Origin: Alkalilimnicola ehrlichii MLHE-1
GTDB lineage: Bacteria > Pseudomonadota > Gammaproteobacteria > Nitrococcales > Halorhodospiraceae
Direction of reading: 5' to 3'
NCBI RefSeq assembly: GCF_000014785.1
Contig: NC_008340.1
Coordinates: 3,090,001-3,122,000, forward strand
Length of the DNA stretch: 32,000 bases
Shown here: positions 9,917-25,922 of the stretch, in pieces
Position numbering within the stretch: position 1 is the first letter of the stretch
Layout of the letters: each line of letters starts with the position of its first letter
Notes under the pieces: generated by a model
The model's input: the letters and a program-made list of their open reading frames with translations, nothing else
Databases searched by the model: none
What the model was told of the DNA's origin: nothing
Translations under genes and position numbers: made by a program

Positions 9917-10919
9917 TCTGATCAAGGCCGGCCGCCTGGCCGCCACCGCCGCCCTCTGCGGTGCCACGCTGTTCGCCGGTAGCGCGAACGCCGAGCGGCT
10001 GCACGAGATCCGCGACCGCGGCACACTGACCGTTGCCCTGTACAACGACTTCGGGCCCTACTCCTGCGTCGGCACCGGCGGCGAGCTGATCGGGGTTGAC
10101 GTGGCCCTGGCCCGCGCCCTGGGCGAGAAGCTGGACCTGAAGGTGGAGCTGGCCGGCTTCGGCGCCCAGGACAGCATGGACCAGGACCTGGCCCTGCTGC
10201 AGGACGAACAGGCCGAGGACGAGTGGGACGAGGCCCTGCTCGAGCGCGCCCCCGACCTGATGATGCACGTACCGGTGGACCCCGTCTTCCAGGAGCGCAA
10301 CGCCGATTACGACATCATGGGCGCCTACTTCCACGAGGCCATGGCGGTGCTCTACGACCGCGAGGAAATCGGCGATCTGGGGTACTCGGTGAACACCCCG
10401 GACCCGTTCGATGGCCTGCGCGTGGGTGTGGAGATGTACACCTACTCCTACACCATGCTCACCAACGGCTTTGACGGCCGCCTGCGCTCCGGCGTGGTCA
10501 ACCACAAGAACGTGCCCGAAGCAGTGGAGGCCCTGCTTGCCGGTGAGACCTCCGCGGTTTTCGCACCGCGCGGCGAGCTTCAGAGCGCCCTGGCCGCCTT
10601 CCCCGAACCGCGCACCAGCCTCGCCCTGAGCGAGCTGCGCGACCTGTTCCGCACGGACCGGGTGCGTAGCGACTGGGACGTGGGCATGGCCGTCAAGGCC
10701 GGCAACCCGGAGCTCTCCCGGGCAGTCGAGGAGGCCATGGCACAACTGGTGGCCGACGGGACCGTGGAGCGTATCTTTAACGAATACGGCATCGCCTGGG
10801 TGGGCCCGGGGGAGGAGTACCGCCTAGCCCGCAACGGCAATGGCCCCGCGGGCGTGACCCGCACCGGCCTGGAACGCGCGCAGCTCTGCCGGGCAACAAT
10901 GCCGGCCGGACTGTACTGA
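9903..10919 (+). CDS. Periplasmic family-3 substrate-binding protein, MoxJ/MxaJ-like (quinoprotein-dehydrogenase-associated)
   Basis: 338 aa. It overlaps the cytochrome c stop by 14 nt, which suggests coupling. Signal peptide ...FAGSANA, then RDRGTLTVALYNDFGPYS typical of PBP type-2 domains. An acidic insertion DSMDQDLALLQDEQAEDEWDEALLER is present. No cognate permease or ATPase is adjacent. Confidence 0.7.
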   Translation: MNTTDLIKAGRLAATAALCGATLFAGSANAERLHEIRDRGTLTVALYNDFGPYSCVGTGGELIGVDVALARALGEKLDLKVELAGFGAQDSMDQDLALLQDEQAEDEWDEALLERAPDLMMHVPVDPVFQERNADYDIMGAYFHEAMAVLYDREEIGDLGYSVNTPDPFDGLRVGVEMYTYSYTMLTNGFDGRLRSGVVNHKNVPEAVEALLAGETSAVFAPRGELQSALAAFPEPRTSLALSELRDLFRTDRVRSDWDVGMAVKAGNPELSRAVEEAMAQLVADGTVERIFNEYGIAWVGPGEEYRLARNGNGPAGVTRTGLERAQLCRATMPAGLY

Positions 10920-10951
10920 GCACCCGCGTCGAAACCCTGGGAGGATGCGCC

Positions 10952-11719
10952 ATGAGGGTATCCCCGCACTTGCTACCCCTTTGCTTGCTTCTGGCAGCGG
11001 CGCTGGCGGCTCCGGCCGCCGCTGGCGTCGAGGAGGATCCACTGGGTTCGCCGGGCTGGCACTTGTCCAAGGCCCGCTATTTCCAAGGCGAAACTTATGT
11101 CTTCGCCCACGACAAGGTCCAGGTGATTGCACCGGATAGTGCCGAGGACACCTTCCAGGTCCCCGGTTTCGTCCGCGTCGAGGGGCTGGGCAACGTACGG
11201 CGGCTGATGGTCTTCACCGACCTCAACCCCATCCCGAAGATCCTCGACATGGAGATACCGCGCGGCGCGCCCAATGTGGGCTTCCGGTTCAAAGTCGAGC
11301 AGGCGACGGCCCTGCGGGCCGCGGCACAGACCGAGGACGGCGTCTGGCACCTGGGGGGCACCTGGATCGACGCTGCCGGCGGCGGCTGCAGCGCACCGAG
11401 CATCGCCAGCGCCGATCCAGCCTGGGAGAGCCGGTTGGGCGAAATCCGCGGCCGCACCTGGCAGCGGGAGGGCAGCCAACGGGTGCGCTTCAGCCTCCTG
11501 CACCCCATGGATACCGGGCTTGCCCCTGGAATCCCCGAGTTTTACCTGGAAGAGCTGGAGGTCCGGGACGGCAATGACCAGACGCTGGCCCGCATGGAGA
11601 TCCACGCCTCCATGTCGGAGAACCCCCATCTGACCCTCGACCTGGAGCACCGGGGTACAACACGACTGGTCGGTCGTGATAACAACGGCAACCGCTTCGA
11701 GGGGACCCTGCAGCCATGA
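10952..11719 (+). CDS. Fused SoxY-like/SoxZ-like periplasmic carrier protein with an internal GGGC cysteine motif (quinoprotein-associated)
   Basis: 255 aa with SD GGGAGGA and signal peptide ...AAPAAAG. The N-domain ends in WIDAAGGGCS (Cys146, codon 11387-11389), resembling the SoxY C-terminal GGC carrier motif. The C-domain has SoxZ-like LLHPMDTG and SMSENPHLTL. Cys146 is the only Cys outside the signal peptide. Confidence 0.7.
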   Translation: MRVSPHLLPLCLLLAAALAAPAAAGVEEDPLGSPGWHLSKARYFQGETYVFAHDKVQVIAPDSAEDTFQVPGFVRVEGLGNVRRLMVFTDLNPIPKILDMEIPRGAPNVGFRFKVEQATALRAAAQTEDGVWHLGGTWIDAAGGGCSAPSIASADPAWESRLGEIRGRTWQREGSQRVRFSLLHPMDTGLAPGIPEFYLEELEVRDGNDQTLARMEIHASMSENPHLTLDLEHRGTTRLVGRDNNGNRFEGTLQP

Positions 11720-12693
11720 TGGAATACCCACTGCAAGCGCCTTTCCTTCGGCTGGCGGCGATGGCGCTAGGCCTCCTGACCATTGGAGCTGCCAACGCGG
11801 GGGGAATCTTTTACGGCCTGCAGCCGCAGCAGGTCGCCGATGGGGTGTACATCTTCGAGGGTCGCCAGGAACACTTCACCCGGCGCAATGGCGGCAATAT
11901 CGTCAACACCGGCTTTGTGATCACCAGCGCCGGGGTGGTGGTATTGGACACCGGGCCGTCCCGGGCCTACGGGGAGGAGATGCGCCGCGCGATCGCACAA
12001 GTCACCGATCAACCCATCCACAGTGTCTACCTGACCCACCACCACCCCGATCACTTTCTGGGCAACCAGGCCTTCGAGGATGTCCCCATCTGCGCCCTGC
12101 CCTACACCCGCGAGATGATCGAGCGGGACGGCGAGGCGCTGCTGGACAACATGTATAACCTGCTCAGCGGCTGGATGGGCGGCACCTATGTGGTGGCGCC
12201 GGATTGCACCGCCGAGCCAGGGCCTGTCACCGTAGGCGAACGCACGCTTGAGGTCATCGCCGGCGCCGGGCACAGCGGCCCCGAGGCCTCTGACCTCATG
12301 CTCCACGACCAGCGCAGCGACACCCTGTTCGCCGGCGACCTGGTCTTCTACGACCGGGCGCCCACCACCCCCCATGCGGACCTCTCCCGCTGGGTCGCGC
12401 TGCTCCATGAGTTGGAACGGGAACTGCCCCGAACACTGGTGCCAGGTCACGGCCCCGTCACCCGCGACGTCGAGGCCGTGCTGCAGACCCGTGACTACGT
12501 GGAGTGGCTCGCCTCCGCCCTGCGCGAAGCGGCGGAACAGGGCCTGGACATGGCCGAGGCACTGGAGTTGGAGGTGCCGGAACGCTTCCGCCATCTGGCA
12601 GTGGTGGACGAAGAACTGCGCCGTTCGGTGGCGCACCTGTACCCGGGTTACGAAACCCAAGCATTGAACCAAGTCATTGATGGTCTGCAATAG
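11716..12693 (+). CDS. Periplasmic metallo-beta-lactamase-fold zinc hydrolase (quinoprotein-cluster-associated)
   Basis: 325 aa. ATGA overlap with the upstream stop. Signal-like N-terminus ...LTIGAANAGG. HxHxDH motif THHHPDH (12037-12054). Downstream GAGHSG and LVPGHG are metal-ligand-like His. Confidence 0.8.
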   Translation: MMEYPLQAPFLRLAAMALGLLTIGAANAGGIFYGLQPQQVADGVYIFEGRQEHFTRRNGGNIVNTGFVITSAGVVVLDTGPSRAYGEEMRRAIAQVTDQPIHSVYLTHHHPDHFLGNQAFEDVPICALPYTREMIERDGEALLDNMYNLLSGWMGGTYVVAPDCTAEPGPVTVGERTLEVIAGAGHSGPEASDLMLHDQRSDTLFAGDLVFYDRAPTTPHADLSRWVALLHELERELPRTLVPGHGPVTRDVEAVLQTRDYVEWLASALREAAEQGLDMAEALELEVPERFRHLAVVDEELRRSVAHLYPGYETQALNQVIDGLQ

Positions 12694-13318
12694 CCGCCAC
12701 CATCGCGAGGGCAAGGGGTGGCGCCGCTCAGGCACCGTGCCGGCCCTGGTCGTTTGCGGGCTACTGCTCAGCGGGTTGCTAATCCCGGGTGTGGCCGCGA
12801 CGGTGGACGATGCCGATGACCCCATCTGGCACCACCCGCACATCAACGCCGAGGGTTACCGTTATGCCCGCTACCGCGCCGCGACACCGGACTCTGTGCC
12901 GGAAGGGGAGACGGTGGATACCGGCCGTGCACAAGCCCTCTGGGCCGCCGGGGAGGTCGTGGCCATCGATGTGATGCCGGTCCTCGAACGGAAAGGACCG
13001 GACGGGAAGCCGGAGTGGGTGGTGCTGGAGGAACGCCGGCACATTCCCGGAAGCATCTGGCTACCCAACGTGGGCGCGGGGCGGCTGAGCCCAGAAATGG
13101 AGGCCTGGTTCGCCGATGCCCTGGCGGAGTTGACCGCCGGTGATAGCAACCAGCCGCTCCTCTTCTACTGCATCACGGATTGCTGGATGGCCTGGAACGC
13201 GGTGCGCCGCGCGGCCGCCCTGGGTTACACCTCGCTCTACTGGTACCCGCCGGGGGCGGATGGCTGGCAGCGGGCGGGGCTGCCGACGGAACCTGCCCAA
13301 CCGAAACCACGACACTAA
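12680..13318 (+). CDS. Periplasmic rhodanese-like protein with a C-x3-C-W motif (PQQ-catabolism-associated CXXCW-type family)
   Basis: The track ORF starts with TTG at 12677. The ATG at 12680 overlaps the MBL gene end. Signal peptide ...LLIPGVAATV. Motif LLFYCITDCWMAWNAVRRAA (Cys164/Cys168/Trp169, 13169-13186). The family assignment is from memory of genomic-context families. Confidence 0.6.
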   Translation: MVCNSRHHREGKGWRRSGTVPALVVCGLLLSGLLIPGVAATVDDADDPIWHHPHINAEGYRYARYRAATPDSVPEGETVDTGRAQALWAAGEVVAIDVMPVLERKGPDGKPEWVVLEERRHIPGSIWLPNVGAGRLSPEMEAWFADALAELTAGDSNQPLLFYCITDCWMAWNAVRRAAALGYTSLYWYPPGADGWQRAGLPTEPAQPKPRH

Positions 13319-13636: not shown

Positions 13637-13831
13637 TGAACCGAACATGGATATAAAATATATTCTTTTTCCGACCAACTATACAGTCGGCGTAAAAGTC
13701 CGGTTATAGTAACCGAACAGGGATAATAAAAAGGTGCACGAAGCCGACCAAAACGCTTTACAACGCCTTTCGAAGCGGTACCGGTGCCCCACCAGAACAA
13801 CAGTCACAGGGGCGACCGGCAGGAGGAGAGA

Positions 13832-15820
13832 ATGTCATCGATTATCGCCCCGATCTCCTTGGGACGCGCCTCTGAGGGCGGATACCCCAGCCCCCTCCCG
13901 GGCGACAAGGCGCAGCGCCTCATTTCCAAGAGTTGGCAGCGTTGTCAGGCCTACGGCCTCGACCCCCGCAAAAAGCCAAAGGACGCCAACGTGCTGGAAG
14001 GCCCGCAGGTAAAGGAAGAGCGGGAGCGTCACGGCGAGCTGCTGAAAGTGGCCAACGCCGAGATGCACAGCCTTTACCAGCAGGTCTCCGGGTCCGGCTG
14101 GTCCCTGCTGCTCACGGACAACCGCGGCGTGATCCTCGACTACGTGGGAGACCCGAACCTGCGGCGTGAATTCCGTTCGGCGGGCCTGTGGCTGGGTGCC
14201 GACTGGAGTGAACGCCACGAAGGTACCAACGGCATCGGCACCGCCCTCACTGAGAGCCGCCCGGTGGCAGTACTGCGGGACCAGCACTATAAGGCGTGTC
14301 ACCACGCGCTGAGCTGTTGCGGGGCCCCCATTCTGGACGCCAACGGCCAGGTGATGGCCGTCCTGGACGCCTCCACCGTGAACGGCAATCAGACGCCGGA
14401 GACCCAGAGCCACACCCTGGCACTGGTCACCCTGTCCGCCCAGTTCATCTCCAAGTGGCGGTTCCTGGAGGAATTCTCGGATGCCATCATCATCCGCTTC
14501 CACAGCCGCTGCGAATATGTCGGTCTGATCAATGACGGTGTGCTGGCGGTCTCCCGGGACGGCACCATCGTTGGTGCCGACCACAACGCCTGCGTCTTCC
14601 TGGGACTCCCCGACCGGCATCGCCTCATCGGCTGGCCCATTGACCAGGTCTTGGACATCCGTCCGGAGATCCTGGTGGAACGGGCCGAACGCCCGTACCT
14701 CCCCTACTGGGTGCTCACCACGGCCCAGGGCACCCAGTTGCACGCCCGTATCCAGCTGGGGCACACAGCAGCGGGCCGCCGGGCGGCGGAACAGCCCGCC
14801 CGCCCCGTACCGGTCCAAAGCCGCAGTGCCAGTCAACCCCGCGATCACCGCGCCACGCTCTGCACCCTGGAGGCACTCAAGGGCAATGACCCGCGCATGG
14901 CGCGCAACGTTAACCGGGCCTACCGGATCATCGATAAGGACATCCCCATCCTGTTGAACGGCGAGACCGGCACCGGCAAGGAACTGTTCGCCCGCGCCGT
15001 GCATACGGCCAGCAGCCGCAGGGACGGCCCCTTCGTTGCCGTGAACTGCGCCTCGATACCGGAGCCCCTGATCGAGAGCGAGCTGTTCGGCTACAAGGGT
15101 GGCGCCTTTACCGGCGCCGACCGCAACGGGCGCAAGGGCAAAATCCTCCAGGCCCACGGCGGCACGCTGTTCCTGGACGAGATCGGGGATATGCCGCTGG
15201 AACTGCAGGCCCGCCTGCTGCGGGTCCTGGAAGAGCGCGAGATCGTGCCCATCGGCGGTGACAAACCACAGGCGGTGGATGTCTACCTGGTCTCGGCGAC
15301 TCATCACAACCTTCCGGAGCTGGTGGCCGAGGGGCGCTTTCGGGAAGACCTTTACTACCGACTCAACGGCCTCACCCTGACCCTACCCCCGTTGCGCGAC
15401 CGGGCTGACTGCCAGGATGTCATTCGCTGCATCCTGCGACTGGAGAGCGATGGCCGGGTGGATATCGATCAGGCGGCGTTGGCGGTGCTGCGCAACCATC
15501 CCTGGCCCGGCAATATCCGCCAGCTACGCAACGTGCTGCGCACCGCCGTTGCGCTCAGCGATGGCGAGACGCTCACGGTGGAAGACCTGCCCGACGATGT
15601 GCTGGATGCCGCTGAGACAGCCGGCGACGACCAGGTGATAGAGGGCACCTGCACCGGCGGCGGCGACCCGTTGGCCAACGCCGAGCGCCGGGCACTCCAA
15701 GCCGCCCTGGAGCAGCACGGCGGCAACGTCAGCCGCACTGCGGAGAGCCTGGGCGTGAGCCGTAACACCCTCTACCGGAAGATGCGGCGGCACGGTCTCG
15801 GCGGCGCCCGCGGCGGCTGA
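13832..15820 (+). CDS. Sigma-54-dependent transcriptional activator, AcoR-like (N-terminal GAF-type sensor, AAA+ core, Fis-type HTH)
   Basis: Start moved to the ATG at 13832 (SD AGGAGGAGAG). Walker A GETGTGKE, sigma-54 contact loop GAFTGA (15101-15118), ESELFGY and Walker [10 protein letters not shown]-terminal [25 protein letters not shown]. Confidence 0.9.
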
Positions 15821-15864: not shown

Positions 15865-17112
15865 TCAGTGGGCGGGCTCCAACCGATAGAGCCCCCCCGA
15901 CTCCTCATCCGTGAGCAGGTAGAGCCGGCCGTCCGGCCCCTGCCGCACATCCCGGATGCGCCCGAGGGTGCCGTCGAGCAGGAGCTCCTCGTGGACCACG
16001 CGGTCGCCCTCCAGCACCAGCCGGTGCAAGCGCTCCTCGGCCAGCGACCCGGCAAACAGATCGCCCTGCCAGCCCGGCACCTCATCACCGCTGTAGAAGG
16101 CGAGCCCTGAGGGGGCCATAGAGTAGTCCCAGTAGTGGACCGCCGGGGTCACGCCGGGGGCGGACCGGCCAATGCCGACCTGCTCGTCGGTGGAGTACTC
16201 GGTGCCGTAGGCCACTTGGGGCCAGCCGTAGTTGTTGCCGGGCTCGATCCGGTGGATCATGTCGCCGCCCCGGGGCCCGTGCTCGCTGGTCCAGATCTCA
16301 CCGGTCTCCGGGTGGATGGCCAGGCCCTGGTTGTTGCGGTGACCGAAGGAGTAGATCTCCGGCCGCAGGTTGCCCGGCGCCATGCCCACCAGCGGGTTGT
16401 CCTCGGCGGCGCCACCATCCTCGTTGAGGCGGATCATGGACCCGGCCGGATCGGTCAGATCCTGCGAGGGGGCGCGCAGGCCGCTGTCGCCGATGGAGAA
16501 GATCACGGTGCCGTCGCCCGGAAAGACGATCCGCGAGCCGTAGTGCCGGCCCGGGGCGGTGCGGGGCATCTGCACGTACAGCGTCTCCAGGTCGGTGAGC
16601 TGGCTGCCGTCGTCGCTCAACCGCGCCCGGGCCAGGGCGGTGCCGCTGCCAAACTCGGCGTCGCCGATGACCGCGTCCGGATCCCCCGGGCTGGAATAGG
16701 TCATGTAGATCCAGCCGTTGTCCTCGTAATCGGGGTGGACCGCCAGATCGAGCAGGCCGCCCTGCCAGCTCGCCTCCAGGGCCAGACCGTCGCGCTCCTC
16801 GGGGTTCACCCGGGGGGTATTACCCACGCGGGTGATGTCATCGCCATCCACCAGCCAGAGGCGGCCGGGGCGTTCGGTGACGAGCTTGCGGCCATCGGGC
16901 AGCCAGGCCACCGCCCAGGGGTGCTCCAACCCCTCCAGCACCTGGACGACATCAAAGCGGGCCTGCTCGCTCTCGACCCCGGCGGCCACCACCTGGTCAC
17001 TGCGACTGACCTCCGCCAGCGCCGACAGGCTGGTCACCAGCAAGACCGCTGGGACCGCTGCCCCGACTACGCAGCGGGCTGGGGTCGTAAGGAATGAACC
17101 AGGCTGCTGCAT
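15865..17112 (-). CDS. Soluble PQQ-dependent sugar (glucose/sorbosone) dehydrogenase, YliI/Asd-like beta-propeller
   Basis: Start trimmed to the ATG at 17112 (SD GAGGAGG), giving MQQPGSFL... with signal ...LSALAEV. Motifs LEHPWAVAWLPDGR, GGLLDLAVHPDY, FSIGD, GHRNNQGLAIHP, EHGPRGGD, NYGWP and GRIRDVRQGPDGRLYLLTD. Confidence 0.85.
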   Translation of the reverse strand: MQQPGSFLTTPARCVVGAAVPAVLLVTSLSALAEVSRSDQVVAAGVESEQARFDVVQVLEGLEHPWAVAWLPDGRKLVTERPGRLWLVDGDDITRVGNTPRVNPEERDGLALEASWQGGLLDLAVHPDYEDNGWIYMTYSSPGDPDAVIGDAEFGSGTALARARLSDDGSQLTDLETLYVQMPRTAPGRHYGSRIVFPGDGTVIFSIGDSGLRAPSQDLTDPAGSMIRLNEDGGAAEDNPLVGMAPGNLRPEIYSFGHRNNQGLAIHPETGEIWTSEHGPRGGDMIHRIEPGNNYGWPQVAYGTEYSTDEQVGIGRSAPGVTPAVHYWDYSMAPSGLAFYSGDEVPGWQGDLFAGSLAEERLHRLVLEGDRVVHEELLLDGTLGRIRDVRQGPDGRLYLLTDEESGGLYRLEPAH

Positions 17113-17203
17113 GGTGCCTCCTCGGGTAGACCTATTGCCGGAATGTAACGGATAGCATAGCCACCCGACACCGGTCCGACAGGACGCCGCCCTTGGGAGG
17201 GGC

Positions 17204-18010
17204 TCAGTCCGCGTTGGGGAAGAACAATCGCTCGCCACGCAGGGTGTAGCGGGCGATGGCGCTCTGCCCGGTCTCGGAGAGCAGCCACTCGTGCCACTGC
17301 CGGGCCCGTTCGTGGTTCAGGTGGGGATGGCGTTCGGCGCTCAGCAGCAGGGTCCCGTACGGGTTGTGCAACGCCTCATCCCCCTGGAACAGGATCTCGA
17401 GACGCTGGCGGTTATCGAAGGCGACCCAGGTGGCGCGGTCCGACAGCACATAGGCATCCATGGCGGCGGCGGTATTGAGGGTGGGCCCCATACCGCCGCC
17501 CAACGCCCGGTACCAGCGCCCGGAGGGCGCGATACCGGCCGCTTGCCACAGCCGCTGCTCCGCCCGGTGGGTACCGCTGTCGTCGCCGCGGGAGGTGAAA
17601 GGCGCGCGGGCCCCGGCGATGCGCTGCAGGGCATCGGCGATGTCGTCGGCATGGCCCACATCCGCAGGGTCGTCTGCCGGGCCGATGAGGACAAAATCGT
17701 TGTACATCACATCGCGCCGCTCGACCGCATAACCGGCCTCGACAAAGGCCCGCTCACCGACAGGGTCGTGGACCAGCAGGCTGTCCACATCACCCCGCCG
17801 GGCAAGGGCGAAGGCCTGGCCGGTGCCCACGGCGATCACCCGCACGTCGATGCCCGTCGCCTCTGAGAATTTCGGGATGATGTGCTGGAACAGGCCGGAC
17901 TGCTCGGTGGAGGTGGTGGAGGCCAGGGTGATGTAATCCCGCGCCTGGGCCGTGCCCGCCAGAGTCAGCGCGGCCAGGCCGATGAGGATCCAACAAACGC
18001 TTCTGATCAT
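17204..18010 (-). CDS. tupA: Tungstate(/molybdate)-type ABC transporter periplasmic binding protein
   Basis: Start trimmed to the ATG at 18010 (MIRSVCWILIGLAALTLAGTAQA). ITLASTTSTEQSGL...VIAVGTGQAFALARRGDVDSLLVHD...RRDVMYNDFVLIGPADDPA matches the remembered TupA pattern (TTTS-type anion motif). Confidence 0.7.
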   Translation of the reverse strand: MIRSVCWILIGLAALTLAGTAQARDYITLASTTSTEQSGLFQHIIPKFSEATGIDVRVIAVGTGQAFALARRGDVDSLLVHDPVGERAFVEAGYAVERRDVMYNDFVLIGPADDPADVGHADDIADALQRIAGARAPFTSRGDDSGTHRAEQRLWQAAGIAPSGRWYRALGGGMGPTLNTAAAMDAYVLSDRATWVAFDNRQRLEILFQGDEALHNPYGTLLLSAERHPHLNHERARQWHEWLLSETGQSAIARYTLRGERLFFPNAD

Positions 18011-18070
18011 CCCCTGCCCTGTCGCCACGCTGCGCCCCTCCAAGCCGGCGCCCGGTCCGACGACCGGGCG

Positions 18071-18850
18071 CTACCAGACCAGCTCGCCCCGGGTGAAGGC
18101 GCGCGCCTCCGGGCTCCGGGGCCGTTCGAAAAAGTCCGCGACCGGCGTACGTTCCAACAGCCGACCGCCACAGATGAAGACCACCTCATCGGCCAGACGC
18201 CGGGCCTGGCCCAAGTCGTGGGTGGTCATCACGATCCGCGTGCCCCGGCGGTCGAACCCCGCCACCGCCTCCTCCACCGCCTTGGTGGCGGCCGGATCGA
18301 GCGCGGCGGTGGGCTCGTCCAGGAACAGCACCTCCGGCTCCAACGCCCAGGCCCGCGCCAGCGCCAGGCGCTGCTGTTCGCCACCGGAGAGCACCCGCGC
18401 CGGCCGCCGCGCCAGCGGCGCCAGCCCGAACCGGGTCAGTGCGGCCATGGCCCGCTCTCGCCGTTGACGCCGGCGGTAGCCCTGCGCCGCGAGGGCAAAG
18501 GTCACGTTGGCCAGTGCCGAGCGGCGCAGCATCACCGGACGCTGGAACACCATGGCCTGCCGGCGGCGCCGCTCCTCGGCCCGGCCTCCCCGGGGGCCGC
18601 GCCAGACCAGCTCCCCCTCGGTGGGCGTCAACAGCCCGTGGCAGATGCGCATCAGCAGGCTCTTGCCGGCCCCATTCGGCCCCATGACGATGGTCTTGCC
18701 GCGCCCGCCGATCCGCAGATCGACCCCCTGGAGCAGGGGCTGCCCCCGGTGGCGAAAGCCGATGCCCTTCAACTCCAGGGGCAGCAGGGCCGACTCGACC
18801 CGCCCGGCGGACTCCGGGCCCGGCCCCGCGTCTGACACTGGCTGCAACAT
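18071..18850 (-). CDS. tupC: ABC transporter ATP-binding protein of the tup system
   Basis: Walker A GPNGAGKS, signature LSGGEQQR, Walker B LFLDEPT. I prefer the ATG at 18850 (GGGAGG SD 7 nt upstream) over the track's GTG at 18856. Confidence 0.75.
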   Translation of the reverse strand: MLQPVSDAGPGPESAGRVESALLPLELKGIGFRHRGQPLLQGVDLRIGGRGKTIVMGPNGAGKSLLMRICHGLLTPTEGELVWRGPRGGRAEERRRRQAMVFQRPVMLRRSALANVTFALAAQGYRRRQRRERAMAALTRFGLAPLARRPARVLSGGEQQRLALARAWALEPEVLFLDEPTAALDPAATKAVEEAVAGFDRRGTRIVMTTHDLGQARRLADEVVFICGGRLLERTPVADFFERPRSPEARAFTRGELVW

Positions 18851-18852
18851 GT

Positions 18853-19551
18853 TCACGCCTCCCGCCGCTTGGCCGCCTCACTCACCAGGAAGGCGACGCC
18901 GTTCACGACCGCCACCAGGGTCAACAGGATGATGCCCAAACCCAGCGCCAGGGCGAGGTTACCCCGGCTGGTCTCCAGGGCGATGGCCGTCGTCATCACC
19001 CGGGTCACGCCGTCGATATTGCCGCCGACGATGAGCACCGCCCCGACCTCCGCGCTGGCCCGACCAAAGCCGGCCAACACCACCGTGATCAGGCTGAAGC
19101 GGGCATCCCACAACAGGGTGGGGATGGCCCGCCCCTTGGTGACCCCCAGCGACCCGAGCTGCTCGCCGTACTCCTGCCACAGGTCCTCAATCACCTGGCG
19201 GGAGAGCGCGGCGATGATGGGCAGCACCAGCACCACCTGGGCGATCACCATGGCGGTGGGGGTGAACAGCAGCCCGAACGGCCCCAACGGCCCGGCGCGG
19301 GAGAGCATCAGGTAGACCGTCAGCCCCGCCACCACCGGTGGCAGCCCCATGAAGGCGTTGAGGACCACCACGATCAGGCCCCGGCCCGGGAACCGCCAAA
19401 GCGCCACCACCGCCCCCAGGGGCAGTGCGATCAAGCTGGCGATCACCACCGCGGTCAGCGAGACCTGCAGGGAGAGGCTGACGATGCCCATCAGGGCCGG
19501 GTCAAGCCCGACGATGAGTTCCCAGGCGGTGGCGAAAGCGTTCGGCTGCAT
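18853..19551 (-). CDS. tupB: ABC transporter permease of the tup system (BPD-type inner-membrane component)
   Basis: Hydrophobic ~232 aa. Start taken as the ATG at 19551 (MQPNAFATAWELIVGLDP...) rather than the GTG at 19593. No clear SD for either start. Directly followed by the ATPase gene. Confidence 0.7.
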   Translation of the reverse strand: MQPNAFATAWELIVGLDPALMGIVSLSLQVSLTAVVIASLIALPLGAVVALWRFPGRGLIVVVLNAFMGLPPVVAGLTVYLMLSRAGPLGPFGLLFTPTAMVIAQVVLVLPIIAALSRQVIEDLWQEYGEQLGSLGVTKGRAIPTLLWDARFSLITVVLAGFGRASAEVGAVLIVGGNIDGVTRVMTTAIALETSRGNLALALGLGIILLTLVAVVNGVAFLVSEAAKRREA

Positions 19552-19732
19552 GACCAGGAAAGATAGTCGGAAAACGGCTGCACTGGGGCACACAGTCTGC
19601 CGACAACCGCTGCATCATGAAATGGAAACAGCCTTACAACGCGAATATGCAGGATAAGGGGCGGCCACCGCCGGCAGCGCGGGCGATGGCCGAAGCCGAG
19701 AGGAGAGGTGGATCAAGGGCGGGCGGGGGCCG

Positions 19733-19933
19733 TCACACCGGACGCTCCTGCTTGAACCCCAGCTTGCGCAGCACCGCCATCGCCGGGCACCAGCCAGAGA
19801 ATGCGGATTGCAGCAGGTTCAGCCCGACGAAGGCGGTGAACAGCAGCCAGGCCTCGTGGTGAGCGTAGGCCAGCACCACGGTGAGCAGCACGAAGAAGCC
19901 GGCGAGCATGCGAAGTCCAGCGTTTACGGTCAT
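19733..19933 (-). CDS. DUF2892 (YgaP-like) small membrane protein
   Basis: 66 aa with two hydrophobic helices. The characteristic LLQSAFSGWCP motif is near the C-terminus. Confidence 0.7.
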   Translation of the reverse strand: MTVNAGLRMLAGFFVLLTVVLAYAHHEAWLLFTAFVGLNLLQSAFSGWCPAMAVLRKLGFKQERPV

Positions 19934-19978
19934 CGGTCATATCTCCCTAATCATCAGTCTCAGGAACGGCGCATCGGT

Positions 19979-21352
19979 TCAGAACCGGAAGCGCACGCGG
20001 GCATAGAGATTGGAATCCCGCTTGAACTGCCCGTAGAACGTATGGCGGTCCTTGCCGCCAAAGAGGTTGCCGCCGAAGGTGTAGGTAACGGCATCCGAGG
20101 CGCGGTAGCGGACGCTCGGACGCAGGTAGTAATCCTCGTCGGCGGGCGAGAGGTAGCTGAACAGCGACCAGATCAGATCGTCGCGCCACATGGAATAGGT
20201 CAGCCGGACGGTGACGACATCCCGGTAGGCCTCCGGCAGGTAGTCCTCGTCGGCCATCCAGCGCGCCTTCAGTTCATCGTGGTCCTGCAGCCGTTCGGCG
20301 TAGTACTGCAGGCCCAGATCGAGGTTGGCGATCAGCTCCCGGGTGTACCCCAGGAGAAACCGCACCTGGGAGTTGGGCACCCACGGTGCTGCCTTGCCGT
20401 CGCGGTTATCCACCGAGTCGTAGTAACCGATCTCGGCATTACCGATACCGCCGGCCACCGGGGCCCGCACACTGGCGCCGTAGGCGTTCAGCCGGGCGTG
20501 GGTGAGACGCGGCTGGTCCGCGGTGCCGATCTGCTCGCTGGGCTGAGGGAAAAAGCCGCGGTAGAGATAACCGGCCAGCTCCACCCCACCGACCCGCCGG
20601 GAGAGGCGGGCGGCCAGCTCGCCATCGTCCGGGAAGTCGTCCGGGGCAGTGGCGGGCAGCGACTCGGCGGTGCGCGCCCCGGTGGCGGGATCGAAGTAGG
20701 ACAGGCGATCGCCGTCGACGAAGCGGTCCGGCTCGAACACCGGGGTCCAGACCACGTCCAGGGTGACGGCGTCGCCGTACCAGGTCCCGCGCAGGGCATC
20801 GGAGGGGGCCTGCAGGTAGTCCTCGTCGCGGCCGGTCAGGAAGGATTCGAAGTCCTTGGGGAACAGATCGTTGACGAAGAGCAGGTCCCCCGTGCCCCAG
20901 GAGAGGATCTGCCGCCCGGCCCGGACATCCAGCCGGTCGCCGACGGGGAAGCTGACCCGGGCCTCGCGCAGCTCACCGCGCAACTCTTCGTCGACGCCGT
21001 CGGCCACCCCGTCGGCACGCACCCGGAAGCGGTAACGGCGCCAGTCGCCGCGCATGTCCAACTGCAGGCGGGCCTCGGCCAGGTTGTAGTCCTTGTCGGT
21101 GACCCGGTTGTTGCGGATGTGATGCCCCCCGGCGGCCTCGAAAAAGCCTTCGAGGTCGAAGGGCAGCCCGCTCTCCTCCTCCCAAGGGTCGTCCTCCCAG
21201 GGGTCATCGTCCCAGGACTCCTCCCCCCAGGCGTCGTCCTCCCACAGGTCGTCGCCCTGGGCGAGCGCCACCGGCGACCCCACGCCGAGCAGGACCGACA
21301 GCGCAACCGCGGCGATGGGCGCCGCCGCCCTGACCGTCTGATGGCCCGGCAT
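19979..21352 (-). CDS. Uncharacterised outer-membrane beta-barrel protein (DUF1302/alginate-export-like) with an acidic Trp-repeat N-terminus
   Basis: Start taken as the ATG at 21352 (SD GGGAGGTGA). Signal peptide ...SPVALAQG. GRQILSWGTGD motif, alternating strand pattern, C-terminal ...YARVRFRF. The family name is tentative. Confidence 0.6.
   Translation of the reverse strand: MPGHQTVRAAAPIAAVALSVLLGVGSPVALAQGDDLWEDDAWGEESWDDDPWEDDPWEEESGLPFDLEGFFEAAGGHHIRNNRVTDKDYNLAEARLQLDMRGDWRRYRFRVRADGVADGVDEELRGELREARVSFPVGDRLDVRAGRQILSWGTGDLLFVNDLFPKDFESFLTGRDEDYLQAPSDALRGTWYGDAVTLDVVWTPVFEPDRFVDGDRLSYFDPATGARTAESLPATAPDDFPDDGELAARLSRRVGGVELAGYLYRGFFPQPSEQIGTADQPRLTHARLNAYGASVRAPVAGGIGNAEIGYYDSVDNRDGKAAPWVPNSQVRFLLGYTRELIANLDLGLQYYAERLQDHDELKARWMADEDYLPEAYRDVVTVRLTYSMWRDDLIWSLFSYLSPADEDYYLRPSVRYRASDAVTYTFGGNLFGGKDRHTFYGQFKRDSNLYARVRFRF
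21167..21253 (-). repeat. Five in-frame pentapeptide repeats x-W-[DEG]-[DE]-[DE] (15-nt periodic DNA repeat) at the mature N-terminus of the beta-barrel protein
   Basis: The protein reads DD-LWEDD-AWGEE-SWDDD-PWEDD-PWEEE-SG, with Trp at residues 37, 42, 47, 52 and 57. The + strand shows periodic CCA(G/A)GG...GTCGTC units. Confidence 0.85.
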
Positions 21353-21357
21353 GGCGA

Positions 21358-22212
21358 TCACCTCCCGCGCAACCAGTCCCGCGGCGGATTACGCAGGCTG
21401 CGCTCGCTGAACACCGCGGCCGGGATCCCCAGATCGTATTCCACGCCCCGGAACTGCACCAGGGTGTGCCCGCCGCTCTCCAGGTCGTCCACCCGCATGC
21501 GCATGGCGGTGGGATAACCATCCACCTCCCGGATGTCGGTGCTGGCGATACGCCGGTACACCTCGCCATCCTGATCCTCGTACTCGATCCGCACCGGCAG
21601 GTCGGTGGCCCGGTCGATCCAGGTGGTGTAGGCGGCGAACTCCACCGAGCCGGGGTCCCGGGGAGTGGAACGCAGCACGTAGTACTCGTCGGTGACCTCC
21701 TGCAGGGTGTGCTCGTCGTCCTCGAGATGCCGCCCGGAGACATCCTCGTAGAAGACGTGCGAGCCGACGAAGCTGGTGCGCTTGTCGCCGGGTGCGATGC
21801 GCCGCACCAGGTCCATGTCCGGCAGATAGAGCCAGCGATCGTCATCGGCCCCCGGGTGCTTTTCCACCAGGAAGACCACGTTGCGGTACTCTGAGGGCCG
21901 GCTGAAGACCACCAGGTAGTGCTGCTCACCCCCCGCCTCCACGTCGCGGCGCAGGATGGTGAACTGGCGGGTCTGCTCCCGGCCCCGGCCATCGACAATG
22001 AGCATGCGGGCCTCGGTACGGCCGTCATTGCCGGCGTAGTAAGAGGCGTTGTTGGCCCGCTCCACGATCTCGGCGGCGGTGGGCGGCTCGTCGGCGTGGC
22101 CGGCGAGCGGCAGCGCAAAGAGGGCCAGGGCCAGCGCGGCGGCGCGCAGCCGTCCCACCACCGGGGCCAACCGGGGCCGGCGCAGGCAGTGAACAGGAAC
22201 AATGTGGCTCAT
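21358..22212 (-). CDS. LolA-like periplasmic 'outer membrane lipoprotein-sorting' family protein
   Basis: The track ORF (525 aa) runs into the RND gene. Trimmed to the ATG at 22212 (SD GGGAGG), giving MSHIVPV... with signal ...ALFALPLAGHA. AEIVERANNASYYAGNDGRTEARMLIVD...QFTILRRD...RWLYLPDMDLVRRI is typical of LolA-like (DUF1329-related) proteins. Confidence 0.65.
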   Translation of the reverse strand: MSHIVPVHCLRRPRLAPVVGRLRAAALALALFALPLAGHADEPPTAAEIVERANNASYYAGNDGRTEARMLIVDGRGREQTRQFTILRRDVEAGGEQHYLVVFSRPSEYRNVVFLVEKHPGADDDRWLYLPDMDLVRRIAPGDKRTSFVGSHVFYEDVSGRHLEDDEHTLQEVTDEYYVLRSTPRDPGSVEFAAYTTWIDRATDLPVRIEYEDQDGEVYRRIASTDIREVDGYPTAMRMRVDDLESGGHTLVQFRGVEYDLGIPAAVFSERSLRNPPRDWLRGR

Positions 22213-22235
22213 AACGGGACCTCCCATAGCGAGTG

Positions 22236-24818
22236 TCAGGCCCCCCGCCCCGTGGCGCGCGGAAAGAGCACGGGGTGGGCGTAGGCGATCAGGGCCGGTA
22301 GGGCGAACAGGGTGACCACCGCAGAGGCGGCCATGATGCTGGCCAGGAAGATACCCACCGTGACGTAGGGCATCAGCGGCGCGGCCAGCAACGGCAGGAA
22401 GCCGACGGCGATGACCACGGCGTTGCGGGTGATGGCGCAGGCGGGCTCCTGGAAGACCCGGTCCAACGCCAGGCGCCAATCGCCCACCTCGTCCAGGGCC
22501 ATGCGGCAGCGCTGGATGAAGTGGATGGCGAAGTCCACCGACAACCCGATGGACAGCGAGGACAGCACCGCCACGGGCATGTCGTAATCCTTGCCGACCA
22601 ACCCCATGACGCCGTAGATGGCGGCGATGGTGACCGTGAGCGGCAGCATCGCCAGCGCCCCCACGGTGATGGAGCGGAACAGGCCGATCATCATCAGGAG
22701 CACGACGACGAAGGCGGAGAGCAGGGCGAGGAGCATGCCGGCCACCATCTCCCCCTGCCAGACCAGGTTGATATAGGTGGCGCCGGCCCAGTCCCACTCC
22801 ACCCCCTCGGGCGGCGGATTGTCCGCGATAAAGGCATCCACGGCCTCCAGCACCCGCCCCATGTCCTGGTTGTCGCCGCTGGGGAGCTGCAGCCAGATAT
22901 TGGCCTCGGTGAAATCCGGGGTCACGAAACGCCAAAGATCGTGCGGGCGGTGCGAGCTCTGGAAGCTCAGCAGCGCCTGCGAGACGCCACCGGCGCTCGC
23001 CGGCAGCCGGTAGTCCTCCGGCTCACCGCTGACCAGCTCACGGTTGATGGTCTTCACCAGGTCCGCCAACGAACCGGCCTTGCCGATGTGGCCGCCGGCC
23101 TCCAGGTGGGCCTGCAACGCCGCCATCCAGGCCAGATGCCCGGGCTTCTGGAAGGCGCGGCTGTCCGTTCGGGCCGCCTCCACGAGGTCGAGCAGCCGCT
23201 CCCAATGGACCGCCTCGTCCAGGTCCACCGTGAACAGCAGGTCGTCGATCTCCACCGCCAGGCGCTCCAACCGGTCCCCCAGCGGGGCCTCGCCCCGGTG
23301 GGCCGCCCACAGCGCCTGCCAGCGGTCGCTGATGCCGAAGCCCTCGGCCTCCGCCTCATCGACAATCGCCTCAGCGCGGGTGCGCAGCTCGCTCTCCAGT
23401 GCGTCCTGGCCGGTCTGGCGAAGGCGCAGGTAGGCCTCGTAGGTGCCGGAGAAACGCTCGTTGAGCACGCTATCGGCGATCCGGATGTCGTGGCTGGACT
23501 TGAACCAGCGGGTGGGGTTGTCATTGATCTGGATCTGAGAGATGCCGTAGACGGCCACCACCACCAGCACCGCCAAGCCCCCGAGGACGAATCCACGGTG
23601 GCGGACGGCCTGGCGACCACCGGCCTGCAGCACGTGGCACAGCCTGGCGGTGCTGCCCGCCTCGCCATCCTGGGCCGTGCGCGTGGACATCCTGTCCAGG
23701 GCACGGCGCGGCAGCGCGGCGGTGTAGGCCGGGATGAAGGTCAGGGTCAAGACCAGCGCCACCAGCACCCCGAAGGAGATGAAACCGCCGAATACCTGCA
23801 CCGGCGGGATGGGGGTGAACAGCAGCGAGGCGAAGCCGACGCCGGTGGTCAGGGCGGTGAACAGCACGGGCTTGAACAGCCGGTCCATGACCCCGCGCAT
23901 CACCGCCCGCGGGTCGTCACCGGGCCGGTAGCGGTCGGCGAAGTTGGAGAGCACGTGGACCGAGGCGACCACCGCAATCGGCATCAGGAAGATCGGGATC
24001 ATGGAGCTCATGATGTGCACGGTGAAGCCCGTGCCGATCAGCAGCCCCATGGTGGAGATCACCGTGGCCATGGCCAGCAGCATGGGGGCCACCACCATGG
24101 GCACGCTGCGGAAGAAGTAGAGCATCACCAGGAAGATGATCAGCCCCGCCAGCGGCGCGGAAATGGCCATCTGCTGGAACATCTCCACACCGAAGGTATC
24201 CTGCGCCACCGGCTGCCCGGTGATATGGAAGGCGTCATCCACCCCCAGCCCGTCGATCACGGCGCGGATCTCCTGAGCGATCCGGTGGCTCTGGTCCTTG
24301 CTTTCCACCGGCACGAAGATCGCCGCCGCCGTGCCGTCTTCCGAGGCGAGCGTGCCCTGATACATGGGCAACCGGGCCACTGCGGTGCGGATGCGCTCCG
24401 CCTCTGCCGGGGTGGCCGGCGGCGCGGGGATCAGCCAATCGTAGTCGATGGTGCCGGGAGCGGCCTGCTCCACATTGTCCACCGCCGCCATGGAGAGCAG
24501 ATCACGGCTCACCACCCCGTCGATCTGCTCGATGGCGCGGGTCAGGTGGTAGTGGGCGGCCAGCGACTCGGGGTTGAAGACGCCGTCGGCGTGGACGTCG
24601 TTCACCTGGCCGACGACGATCATGTCGTGGAGGTTGAACTGGGTCTGGACCTGATTGTGGAGCACCCGGTCCGGCTGGTCCGCCGGCAGCATGTTCTCGG
24701 GATCGGTGTCGATCTGGATGCGCGGAATCATTGCACCCAGGACCACCACCATCAGCACCATGGCGGCGAAGATCCACCGGCGGTGGTCCATACACCAGTC
24801 CGTCAGCCGTGCACCCAT
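22236..24818 (-). CDS. RND-superfamily transporter, MMPL/HpnN-like (no adaptor or TolC partner adjacent)
   Basis: 860 aa with SD GGGAGGAT. Two blocks of ~6 TM helices separated by large soluble loops. N-terminus ...IQIDTDPENMLP and repeated SxDFAIHF-type motifs (LSVDFAIHF). Confidence 0.8.
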   Translation of the reverse strand: MGARLTDWCMDHRRWIFAAMVLMVVVLGAMIPRIQIDTDPENMLPADQPDRVLHNQVQTQFNLHDMIVVGQVNDVHADGVFNPESLAAHYHLTRAIEQIDGVVSRDLLSMAAVDNVEQAAPGTIDYDWLIPAPPATPAEAERIRTAVARLPMYQGTLASEDGTAAAIFVPVESKDQSHRIAQEIRAVIDGLGVDDAFHITGQPVAQDTFGVEMFQQMAISAPLAGLIIFLVMLYFFRSVPMVVAPMLLAMATVISTMGLLIGTGFTVHIMSSMIPIFLMPIAVVASVHVLSNFADRYRPGDDPRAVMRGVMDRLFKPVLFTALTTGVGFASLLFTPIPPVQVFGGFISFGVLVALVLTLTFIPAYTAALPRRALDRMSTRTAQDGEAGSTARLCHVLQAGGRQAVRHRGFVLGGLAVLVVVAVYGISQIQINDNPTRWFKSSHDIRIADSVLNERFSGTYEAYLRLRQTGQDALESELRTRAEAIVDEAEAEGFGISDRWQALWAAHRGEAPLGDRLERLAVEIDDLLFTVDLDEAVHWERLLDLVEAARTDSRAFQKPGHLAWMAALQAHLEAGGHIGKAGSLADLVKTINRELVSGEPEDYRLPASAGGVSQALLSFQSSHRPHDLWRFVTPDFTEANIWLQLPSGDNQDMGRVLEAVDAFIADNPPPEGVEWDWAGATYINLVWQGEMVAGMLLALLSAFVVVLLMMIGLFRSITVGALAMLPLTVTIAAIYGVMGLVGKDYDMPVAVLSSLSIGLSVDFAIHFIQRCRMALDEVGDWRLALDRVFQEPACAITRNAVVIAVGFLPLLAAPLMPYVTVGIFLASIMAASAVVTLFALPALIAYAHPVLFPRATGRGA

Positions 24819-25019
24819 TCAGATCCTCCCATTGCTTTCGCTTGCCGACGGCCCAAAGCGGGCGCGAGTGACATCCGCACAGGCAGAGTCCTGCCAGGCG
24901 CCCGGAATTTATATCACGTTTCTCTAATATATAATAGGGATCGCCCCCCTGCCACACCGACAACGCCGCCTCAGCACGCTATCATCGGGCCTGTCCACGC
25001 CGGCATAGTGACGACCGAC

Positions 25020-25922
25020 ATGACCTCCAACGGCCTGCCTACCCACCCGCGCTATCTGACCACCGATGAGGTGGCGGCGTACCTCCGCCTCAAACCGCGC
25101 AAGGTTTACGACCTGGTCCGCCAGGGGCTCATCCCCAGCACCAAGGTGACCGGGAAACTGCTGTTCCCGCGCGAGGTCATCGACCTGTGGATCATGAACC
25201 ACCTGGAAGGGGATCAACGCAGCACCCGGCCGGCGCCACCGGTGCTGGCCGGCAGCCAGGATCCGCTGCTGGATTGGGCCCTGCGCGAGTCCCGCACCGG
25301 CCTGGCCACCCTCTGCCGGGGCAGCGCCGATGGGGTACGGCGCCTGTTAGAAGGCGAAGCGATGGCGGCCGGCATGCACATCCTCGATCCGGAGAGCGGC
25401 GACTACAATGTACCGGCCCGCCTGGGCCTGGGCGGTATGCGCGATCTGGTGATCATTCGCTGGGCACGCCGCCGTCAGGGGTTACTGCTGGCCCCGGGTA
25501 ACCCCAAGGGTATCCATGCGCTCGCCGATCTGATCCGGCCGGGGCTGCGCATCGCCCACCGGCAATCGGAGGCCGGCGCCGATACCCTATTCCGGTGGCT
25601 GCTGGACCAGGCCGGTATCGACCGCGCCCGGCTGAATCTCACCCAGCACCCGGCCCTGTCCGAGGATGATCTGGCGCTGTCGGTGCGCCAGGGGGAGGCC
25701 GACACCGGCGTGGCGGTGGAGGCCGCGGCCCGACGGCACGGCCTGGATTTCCTCCCGCTGCACTGGGAGTGCTTCGACCTGGCCATGCGCCGACGCAGCT
25801 ACTTTGAACCGCCGGTTCAGGCATTGGTGCGCTTCGCGGGCGACCCGCGGCTGCAGGCCCATGCAGACGAGATGCAGGGCTACGACCTGAGCGACCTCGG
25901 CCGTGTCGTTTTCAATGCCTGA
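25020..25922 (+). CDS. Transcriptional regulator: excisionase/MerR-type HTH fused to a periplasmic-binding-protein-like (oxyanion-binding-like) domain, TunR-like architecture
   Basis: Only the last ~300 codons of the 1133-aa track ORF are credible. MTSNGLPTHPRYLTTDEVAAYLRLKPRKVYDLVRQGLIPSTKVTGKLLFPREVIDLWI is an HTH_17-type domain. The remainder resembles PBP_like domains fused to Mo/W-related regulators. Confidence 0.6.
   Translation: MTSNGLPTHPRYLTTDEVAAYLRLKPRKVYDLVRQGLIPSTKVTGKLLFPREVIDLWIMNHLEGDQRSTRPAPPVLAGSQDPLLDWALRESRTGLATLCRGSADGVRRLLEGEAMAAGMHILDPESGDYNVPARLGLGGMRDLVIIRWARRRQGLLLAPGNPKGIHALADLIRPGLRIAHRQSEAGADTLFRWLLDQAGIDRARLNLTQHPALSEDDLALSVRQGEADTGVAVEAAARRHGLDFLPLHWECFDLAMRRRSYFEPPVQALVRFAGDPRLQAHADEMQGYDLSDLGRVVFNA

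Follow-up and report, generated by a model that had tools for sequence, protein, structure and literature searches.

The closest described relatives of the system considered here are AmeABCD of Castellaniella defragrans and the DUF1302/DUF1329/BNR/RND clusters of Shewanella, Kangiella and Pseudomonas (PMC6394551; bioRxiv 10.1101/072470; 10.1101/2020.07.04.188060). We have analysed a 32,000-nt stretch of the genome of Alkalilimnicola ehrlichii MLHE-1, hereafter the window, whose encoded proteins match that strain with 100% identity and in which an operon lying wholly on the minus strand encodes a pump belonging to the RND (resistance-nodulation-division) superfamily, a LolA-like protein and an outer-membrane β-barrel. 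A preliminary description of this DNA, made from the letters alone, had likened these genes to the DUF1302/DUF1329/RND clusters, and the kinship holds. An HAE3-like pump is accompanied in both cases by a DUF1302-type outer-membrane protein and a periplasmic protein of the LolA superfamily, a classical membrane-fusion protein (MFP) and TolC are missing, and export of hydrophobic compounds is implicated (PMC6394551; bioRxiv 10.1101/072470). The accompanying remark that no substrate is established for such clusters is only roughly right, as genetic evidence ties AmeABCD, an HAE3 RND pump with DUF1302 and DUF1329 partners, to monoterpene tolerance and dye efflux (PMC6394551).

The differences are equally instructive. 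The carrier of the A. ehrlichii module is a PF17131 protein of about 280 residues and the barrels of its family, at the DUF1302 threshold, span about 430-460 residues; the Ame-type counterparts are a DUF1329 protein of about 450 residues and a barrel of about 600. The COG4447 BNR/Ycf48-like propeller of Ame-type systems is missing, with no such gene in the window or among the top recurrent neighbour clusters of 80 related loci, and a DUF2892 gene is present instead. The gene order is pump, carrier, barrel, and the neighbours belong to the sulfide response rather than to catabolic islands. Since Kangiella carries both the module and a DUF1302/DUF1329/BNR/RND cluster, the two are paralogous, separate systems.

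What is new here is a fourth gene and a proposed reactive-sulfur link for an adaptor-less RND module of known type. The best overall explanation, which we hold tentatively, is that the operon encodes an adaptor-less trans-envelope exporter of the reactive-sulfur response. The exporter architecture is itself likely. That the module is linked to the sulfide/persulfide response across its orthologous group seems, on balance, somewhat probable because the conserved neighbours, namely ArsR, sulfide:quinone reductase (SQR) and DUF2892 genes, are sulfur-related; for A. ehrlichii the suggestion comes from neighbours in other genomes.

With a profile of the barrel, a minimum of 586 species genomes were found to encode a relative, and 533 clusters (50% identity) match at E<=1e-30 in a library of 1.84 billion proteins. 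Neighbourhood counts given here refer to the best 80 loci of these genomes; neighbours were clustered with BLAST and the representatives compared with Pfam. The three genes travel together, as the preliminary description had supposed they should if they form one system: the order RND, LolA-like, barrel on one strand is kept in 71/71 loci with enough upstream DNA, the remaining nine being cut by contig ends. Among Gammaproteobacteria the module occurs in Halorhodospira, Thioalkalivibrio, Halomonas, Marinospirillum, Neptuniibacter, Spiribacter, Kangiella and Woeseiaceae. It is also found in Nitrotoga and Rhodocyclaceae, and in Desulfobacterota, Myxococcota, Nitrospirota, Nitrospinota, Planctomycetota, Bacteroidota, Gemmatimonadota, Hydrogenedentes and others.

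The commonest neighbour is an ArsR-family regulator of about 110 residues, found at 39 of the 80 loci either directly beside the module or parted from it by an SQR gene alone. Its best PDB matches are HlyU, SqrR, NolR, BigR and YgaV. The persulfide-sensing site of SqrR, BigR, HlyU and YgaV is a pair of cysteines, and in the neighbour proteins a cysteine in helix α2 (30 of 39) and one near the C-terminus (39 of 39) align with SqrR C41 and C107. In six loci a type I SQR gene precedes the pump gene by 0-93 nt in the same orientation, and in a seventh it is divergent; the product matches the A. ferrooxidans enzyme at 6e-147. Other neighbours encode a CsoR/CstR-family repressor, persulfide-dioxygenase-like metallo-β-lactamase (MBL) proteins, fusions of rhodanese with MBL or with coenzyme A disulfide reductase (CoADR), and an ArsR-rhodanese fusion. 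In some loci another sulfur-type regulator stands in for the two-cysteine ArsR protein: in locus L022 (4300-4565) 13 nt separate the gene of a CsoR/CstR-family repressor (PF02583) from the pump gene downstream of it, and in L007 (~1460-4500) an ArsR-rhodanese fusion is encoded upstream of an SQR-pump operon. At least one sulfur-linked gene lies within 3 kb of the module in 54/80 loci, and the association of the module with reactive-sulfur genes is non-random.

The fourth gene of the A. ehrlichii operon encodes a 66-residue protein that matches PF11127 (YgaP-like_TM/DUF2892) with E=3.8e-13 and 49.8 bits against a cutoff of 25.3 bits. Hydropathy indicates two hydrophobic helices of inner-membrane type, and the protein carries a Cys-Pro pair, C49-P50; G12, Q42, C49 and P50 are invariant across 49 related domains. 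DUF2892 is the membrane domain of YgaP, a member of persulfide-responsive regulons. A gene of this family follows the barrel gene directly in 16/80 loci, stands between the pump and carrier genes in six from Planctomycetota and precedes the pump gene in three, which places it in or beside the operon in 25/80 overall; about 13 further loci have one within 3.5 kb of the module. The preliminary description listed three genes, all of which are real, and overlooked the DUF2892 gene, and therefore the connection with reactive sulfur as well. H2S induces a DUF2892 gene of Azospira suillum about 10-fold, and the transcript then ranks with the most abundant ones (PMC5358917).

A palindrome, TATTAG-N6-CTAATA with at most two mismatches, is shared by 23 loci, in which it stands upstream of the pump gene at a distance of 23-165 nt; three of these loci have no adjacent ArsR gene. 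The window holds a single match, against 0.02 expected in the 32 kb; this degenerate copy is situated in the promoter region of the operon (Table 1) and is a candidate operator for an SqrR-type repressor encoded elsewhere in the genome.

The four genes most likely form a single operon, because the gaps of 23, 5 and 45 nt are accompanied by ribosome sites, promoter-like sites are confined to the region ahead of the RND gene and nothing resembling a terminator was detected after the last two genes. The tight packing and good Shine-Dalgarno sequences claimed for the first three genes are confirmed, GGGAGG preceding each start; the DUF2892 gene has its own GGGAG and sits within the 385-nt region after the barrel gene that was supposedly empty. 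An alternative GTG start of the barrel gene, at 21361, overlaps the stop codon of the preceding gene. A promoter scan of 19500-25100 returned three sigma-70-like sites against 0.6 expected, all in the divergent promoter region, and neither the barrel gene nor the DUF2892 gene is followed by a terminator-like site. The possibility that the 385-nt region holds an ArsR gene, as it does in the closest relatives (L001 and L002), was considered and rejected; the plus-strand open reading frames there do not encode ArsR proteins. Long open reading frames opposite real genes, such as one of 1133 residues across the pump gene (22521-25922, plus strand), are by-products of a GC content of 67-70%, and only the last ~300 codons of that example, which form the regulator gene at its end, are real.

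Table 1. Features of the export operon and of its surroundings; coordinates are positions in the window
Feature	Coordinates	Strand	Product	Remarks
RND pump gene	24818..22236	minus	860 aa	
LolA-like gene	22212..21358	minus	284 aa	ATG start; 23-nt gap after RND gene
Barrel gene	21352..19979	minus	457 aa	ATG start; 5-nt gap after LolA-like gene
DUF2892 gene (fourth gene)	19933..19733	minus	66 aa	45 nt downstream of barrel gene
Divergent promoter region	24819..25019	none		AT-rich island at ~24905-24937
Degenerate palindrome copy, TATTAGAGAAACGTGATA	24912..24929	minus		2 mismatches; 93 nt upstream of RND start
PQQ quinoprotein relay island	3025-13318	plus		complete
Sigma-54 activator gene	13784-15820	plus	678 aa	long N-terminal sensor region
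GSDH-family dehydrogenase gene	15865-17238			PQQ glucose/sorbosone type
TupA/TupB-like transporter genes	17204-19593	minus		oxyanion ABC transporter
HTH_17 + PBP_like (PF12727) regulator gene	25020-25922	plus		molybdate/tungstate type

The architecture proposed in the preliminary description, an inner-membrane pump, a soluble carrier and an outer-membrane barrel with neither adaptor nor TolC-type channel, holds by hidden Markov models, structural models and synteny. The profile classification it had called for matched the pump to MMPL and the carrier to PF17131, and put the barrel at the threshold of DUF1302. No gene in the window carries an HlyD/MFP or TolC/OEP domain by comparison with Pfam, in agreement with what had been claimed, and these are equally absent among the recurrent neighbours of the 80 loci. 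A tripartite HAE1-type RND efflux system is recognised by a co-encoded HlyD-family protein and TolC/OEP; neither is encoded here.

The pump matches the Pfam family MMPL (PF03176) over two stretches (3e-33, 115.6 bits, cutoff 20.5). Its best NCBIfam match is HAE3, TIGR00921 (E=2.9e-52, 177.7 bits), which falls below the cutoff of 351.9 and suggests a divergent branch near HAE3. Comparison with PDB sequences yields just weak matches to Dispatched and MmpL4/5. Hydropathy reveals the arrangement of two 1+5 sets of helices: TM1, a periplasmic loop of ~180 residues (35-217), TM2-6, TM7, a second periplasmic loop of ~265 residues (430-695) and TM8-12. Four titratable residues in the membrane, H268, H288, D762 and H766, are at least 95% conserved among 65 orthologues and would fit proton coupling. 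Identification as HpnN, a parallel drawn in the preliminary description, fails as a matter of family membership; the scores for TIGR03480 (92.4 bits, cutoff 751.85) and NF052374 (30.4 bits, cutoff 1100) are far too low, and neither hpn, shc nor any other hopanoid gene is found among those of the window.

The LolA-like protein matches PF17131, LolA_like, at 2e-52 (177.9 bits, cutoff 30). It has a signal peptide (...LAGHA/DEPP) and no lipobox, and is predicted to be secreted and periplasmic. PDB sequence matches are to 9tp6, 4z48 and 3bk5. The AlphaFold2 (AF2) model, with a mean pLDDT of 82.6, displays the expected LolA-like fold, with TM-scores of 0.83 to P. gingivalis LolA3 (9tp6), 0.78 to 4z48, a DUF1329 protein, and 0.77 to 3bk5; it also superposes on 3buu. 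True LolA structures match at TM-scores of 0.35-0.41 only. The protein matches no LolA model of Pfam or NCBIfam, and the genes of the partners that define the canonical Lol pathway, LolCDE and LolB, are absent from the window. The carrier is accordingly not the LolA of that pathway, and the module as a whole is neither a Lol system nor HpnN nor a tripartite RND pump. DUF1329 (PF07044) gives no match to the window protein at E<=0.01 and many close homologues have precomputed PF07044 matches besides PF17131, which makes the PF17131 carrier family related to, yet distinct from, DUF1329. LolA3, which was crystallised recently, possesses a hydrophobic groove and does not bind LolB (PMC13103446), and deletion of lolA3 in Flavobacterium gave no lipoprotein-related phenotype (PMC11885536).

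The barrel protein, named 'DUF1302 family protein' by NCBI, scores 21.2 bits against DUF1302 (PF06980), just under the cutoff of 23.2, over profile positions 148-406 of 541. Thirteen of 24 members of the family do match DUF1302, the best at 6e-8, and by these profiles the barrel belongs to a short family distantly related to DUF1302. An AF2 model based on 24 homologues (pLDDT 83.4, pTM 0.79) confidently predicts a barrel of 18 strands, the feature on which the preliminary description had made its proposal depend. Foldseek relates it to generic porins of 16-18 strands (MOMP, OmpM1, OmpF and AlgE) at TM-scores of ~0.5, and the sequence profile has no match in the PDB. The GRQILSWG motif and RVRFRF ending reported previously are both present, as AGRQILSWGTGD and ...YARVRFRF. 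The motif is part of the most conserved segment of the family, the invariant GRQ(I/V)LxWGTGDLLFxNDLFPKD, which alignment and model place in a long loop after strand 5; we infer that this segment folds into the lumen. Neither the barrel nor the mature LolA-like protein contains cysteine.

Residues 1-59 of the barrel protein are disordered in the model and comprise the signal peptide and an acidic, Trp-rich stretch. The latter, at residues ~28-60 (window 21175-21270), is the repeat DDLWEDDAWGEESWDDDPWEDDPWEEE. Repeats of the DDWGDDxW type are kept in gammaproteobacterial orthologues, proline repeats of the PALPPGL type occur instead in Planctomycetota, Hydrogenedentes and others, and N-terminal extensions reach ~350 residues in certain members of the family. 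The carrier or the pump may dock by way of this repeat, which would then serve as a tether.

Further relatives of the module show how far the architecture extends. On a megaplasmid of Ilyobacter (Fusobacteriota) the same three genes occur in another order, with a pump 43% identical over its full length to that of the window. The orthologous module (I. polytropus pILYOP01, L081, 2381-11522) directly follows selD, yedF, DUF3343 and a CoADR-like flavoprotein gene, yedF encoding a sulfurtransferase-like selenium protein; this single observation hints at a link of the module to selenium besides sulfur. The Bacteroidota MMPL/LolA3/DUF1302 operons (P. gingivalis PG1175-81 and Prevotella) have the same three-part layout and order, and LolA3 (9tp6) is the solved structure closest to the window carrier. 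Their proteins are 21-27% identical to those of the window, and they include two ATP-binding cassette (ABC) exporters and a TetR regulator with no DUF2892, ArsR or SQR gene. DUF2892 is absent from both the Ilyobacter and Prevotella loci. When P. gingivalis and P. intermedia are starved of iron, expression of operons annotated as ABC-ABC-MMPL-carrier-DUF1302 goes up 13- to 223-fold (PMC10434189). The architecture is therefore a reusable chassis, with a cargo that probably differs between subfamilies. LolA3 shares 56% identity with the carrier that one such operon encodes in Prevotella nigrescens (L082, 1-8107); given that identity and the operon composition, LolA3 is probably the carrier of an export system of this kind and not a lipoprotein chaperone.

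Comparison may be extended to other routes across the envelope. The hopanoid transporter HpnN and the mycobacterial lipid and siderophore transporters MmpL3/4/5 likewise dispense with a TolC-type duct, but are not encoded with a LolA-like carrier and a barrel; the window pump scores far below the cutoffs of their models, and hopanoid and mycolate genes are absent here. The Lol, Lpt and Mla systems, together with the LolA-like and MMPL genes of aryl-polyene/flexirubin clusters, share the logic of an inner-membrane motor, a periplasmic chaperone or bridge with a hydrophobic groove, and an outer-membrane acceptor. The motor is an ABC transporter in Lol, Lpt and Mla and a probably proton-driven RND protein in the module, and the acceptor is an 18-strand porin-like barrel in place of LolB, LptDE or MlaA-OmpC; no family of these pathways is matched. 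With the SqrR/BigR/HlyU/YgaV regulons (sqr, pdo/blh, rhodanese and ygaP) the related loci have in common that the module is paired with genes for two-cysteine ArsR, SQR, DUF2892 and persulfide dioxygenase (PDO)-like proteins. In the window, unlike those loci, regulator and SQR genes are not adjacent to the module. The searchable literature contains no paper that lists the RND/LolA-like/barrel module in these regulons, nor one that links it with sulfide, persulfide or SqrR.

How might such a system work? On the gene content, folds, synteny and neighbour statistics we infer a direction of transport, a set of hand-over steps, a mode of regulation in A. ehrlichii and a cargo. The MMPL/HAE3-like pump, driven by protons, would draw its hydrophobic cargo out of the inner membrane, or out of the outer leaflet alone, and pass it to the soluble LolA-fold carrier with its presumed hydrophobic groove. 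The carrier would shield the cargo across the periplasm and deliver it to the 18-strand DUF1302-related barrel, for release at or beyond the outer membrane. The DUF2892 Cys-Pro protein would be an accessory inner-membrane component, and an SqrR-type repressor would induce expression of the operon as sulfane sulfur rises. SQR would produce lipophilic zero-valent sulfur (S8 or long polysulfanes) in the membrane; once exported, it would no longer be toxic to the envelope and would end up as a sulfur deposit outside the cell.

Lipophilic zero-valent sulfur is the likeliest candidate for the cargo, though in absolute terms a possibility to be treated with reserve. It is the most economical choice because it is membrane-soluble, needs no cysteine relay and must leave these cells. 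The lack of cysteine in the mature carrier and the barrel suits a hydrophobic cargo that is carried non-covalently, and not a persulfide relay. A. ehrlichii turns sulfide into sulfur by oxidation and is the dominant organism of haloalkaline sulfur-producing biodesulfurisation reactors (PMC10807427), and Ectothiorhodospiraceae are reported to excrete elemental sulfur and not to store it intracellularly (PMC8877833). In Azospira suillum an SQR gene shares an operon with a classical RND pump, and that operon is sulfide-induced with an effect on fitness (PMC5358917). A more specific version, which we regard as doubtful, is that the module carries a hydrophobic zero-valent chalcogen (S8/polysulfane, perhaps elemental selenium) over the periplasm and outer membrane, the LolA-like protein being a soluble sulfur chaperone and the DUF2892 protein feeding or gating the pump.

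Several points weigh against a role in the reactive-sulfur response. In the window itself there is no ArsR or SQR gene beside the module, and the only local regulator is of the molybdate/tungstate type. The palindrome copy is wrong at 2 of 12 specified positions and lies in an AT-rich promoter, where chance matches come more easily than whole-window shuffles suggest. At 26/80 loci no sulfur-linked neighbour occurs within 3 kb and at 42/80 no DUF2892 gene was found; moreover, many of the 80 loci are from related Oceanospirillales, so that fewer independent observations stand behind the counts than the figures suggest. Assignment of the neighbouring ArsR proteins to the persulfide-sensing clade relies solely on homology and on where the cysteines lie. 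The distant Bacteroidota triad responds to iron starvation, not sulfide (PMC10434189), and the searchable literature yielded no experimental work on members of precisely this subfamily.

The surroundings of the operon in the window are of a different character (Table 1). The complete pyrroloquinoline quinone (PQQ) 'quinoprotein relay' island comprises genes for an aldehyde dehydrogenase, a TonB-dependent receptor, a PQQ-dependent dehydrogenase of the methanol/ethanol family (TIGR03075, 773 bits), an SBP_bac_3 protein, a SoxYZ-like carrier (TIGR04557), the relay zinc metallohydrolase 1 (TIGR04558) and a CXXCW rhodanese-like protein (TIGR03865). The SoxYZ-like, MBL and rhodanese genes (10952-13318) were considered as a local sulfur link and discarded, being parts of the PQQ quinoprotein relay with TIGR04557, TIGR04558 and TIGR03865 all above cutoff. 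The sigma-54 activator, whose best full-length NCBIfam resemblance is to DhaR, separates the island from the gene of the GSDH-family (glucose/sorbosone dehydrogenase) enzyme. The HTH_17-PBP_like regulator most plausibly serves the TupABC-like transporter on the far side of the operon, and it looks as if the export operon was inserted between this regulator and its likely Tup target. As partners of the module the regulator, the TupABC-like genes and GSDH were rejected, with 0/80 related loci containing them, and no PQQ-alcohol or aldehyde dehydrogenase gene appears among the recurrent neighbour clusters of those loci. The context stressed in the preliminary description, alcohol metabolism and a divergent HTH-PBP regulator, is not conserved in the 80 loci, and the solvent, regulator and hopanoid associations do not hold.

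Other explanations deserve consideration. The operon could encode a solvent or hydrocarbon tolerance pump akin to AmeABCD, which would expel alcohols, aldehydes or solvents on behalf of the PQQ-alcohol and aldehyde oxidation genes. AmeABCD, with related components, does have a monoterpene-tolerance phenotype (PMC6394551), DUF1302/DUF1329 genes are often found in aromatic or terpene catabolic islands, and the PQQ-alcohol dehydrogenase cluster is 4-17 kb from the module. Yet the sigma-54 activator, the GSDH gene and the TupABC-like transporter part the alcohol genes from the module, the alcohol dehydrogenase, aldehyde dehydrogenase and quinoprotein-relay genes are not among the recurrent neighbours, which are sulfur-related and not catabolic, and the BNR/Ycf48-like component of Ame-type systems is lacking; we consider this explanation quite unlikely. 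Export of an endogenous envelope lipid (a hopanoid, an ornithine lipid, another lipid of the outer membrane or a 'cell-wall component'), as by HpnN or MmpL3, is unlikely too, if less easily set aside. Price et al. put forward that role for DUF1302/DUF1329/BNR/RND, characterised HAE3/MMPL relatives move lipids, the pump has weak HpnN and MmpL matches, mutants in DUF1302/DUF1329 genes are pleiotropic and the LolA fold binds acyl chains. Against this, the HpnN scores are far below cutoffs, no lipid-biosynthesis genes occur in the window or among the recurrent neighbours, which are stress-responsive repressors of persulfide type rather than housekeeping genes, and the presence of both systems in Kangiella indicates that the module is separate from the cluster considered by Price et al.

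A metal-related cargo, be it a lipophilic metallophore, metal sulfides or thio-molybdate/tungstate, would tie the operon to the Mo/W-type regulator and ABC transporter genes between which it is wedged. Under iron starvation expression of the distant Bacteroidota triad, along with two ABC exporters, rises 13-223-fold (PMC10434189), MmpL4/5 export siderophores, the Azospira authors proposed that sulfide-induced RND pumps export metal sulfides (PMC5358917), and ArsR proteins are classically metal sensors. However, the Tup-like genes and regulator are not beside the module in any related locus, the ArsR neighbours have the SqrR/BigR cysteine pair and not known metal sites, there are no siderophore-biosynthesis genes nearby and the Bacteroidota pump is only 21-25% identical to that of the window, which together render such a cargo improbable. 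Finally, the LolA-like protein might sort lipoproteins to the outer membrane with neighbouring genes being unrelated, as its fold and its NCBI name, 'outer membrane lipoprotein-sorting protein', could imply. This is very improbable: the match is to PF17131 and not to canonical LolA, LolCDE and LolB are not nearby, LolA3 lacks pairing with LolB and its deletion carries no lipoprotein-related phenotype (PMC13103446, PMC11885536), and strict synteny with pump and barrel points to a dedicated system.

The exit of elemental sulfur made at the inner membrane from a Gram-negative cell is an old question of sulfur microbiology. If sulfur export by the module is correct, it would explain the extracellular deposition of sulfur by Ectothiorhodospiraceae, Alkalilimnicola, Thioalkalivibrio and many SQR-bearing heterotrophs. 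There is an industrial stake also, as A. ehrlichii and Thioalkalivibrio drive haloalkaline biodesulfurisation, the product of which is extracellular sulfur, and the module offers a concrete, genetically testable candidate for sulfur export. Cargo aside, it would represent a compact RND route over the envelope, in which a soluble LolA-fold carrier and a porin-like barrel replace adaptor and TolC, and one working hypothesis may now join the orphan families PF17131, short DUF1302 and DUF2892 with the solved structure of LolA3.

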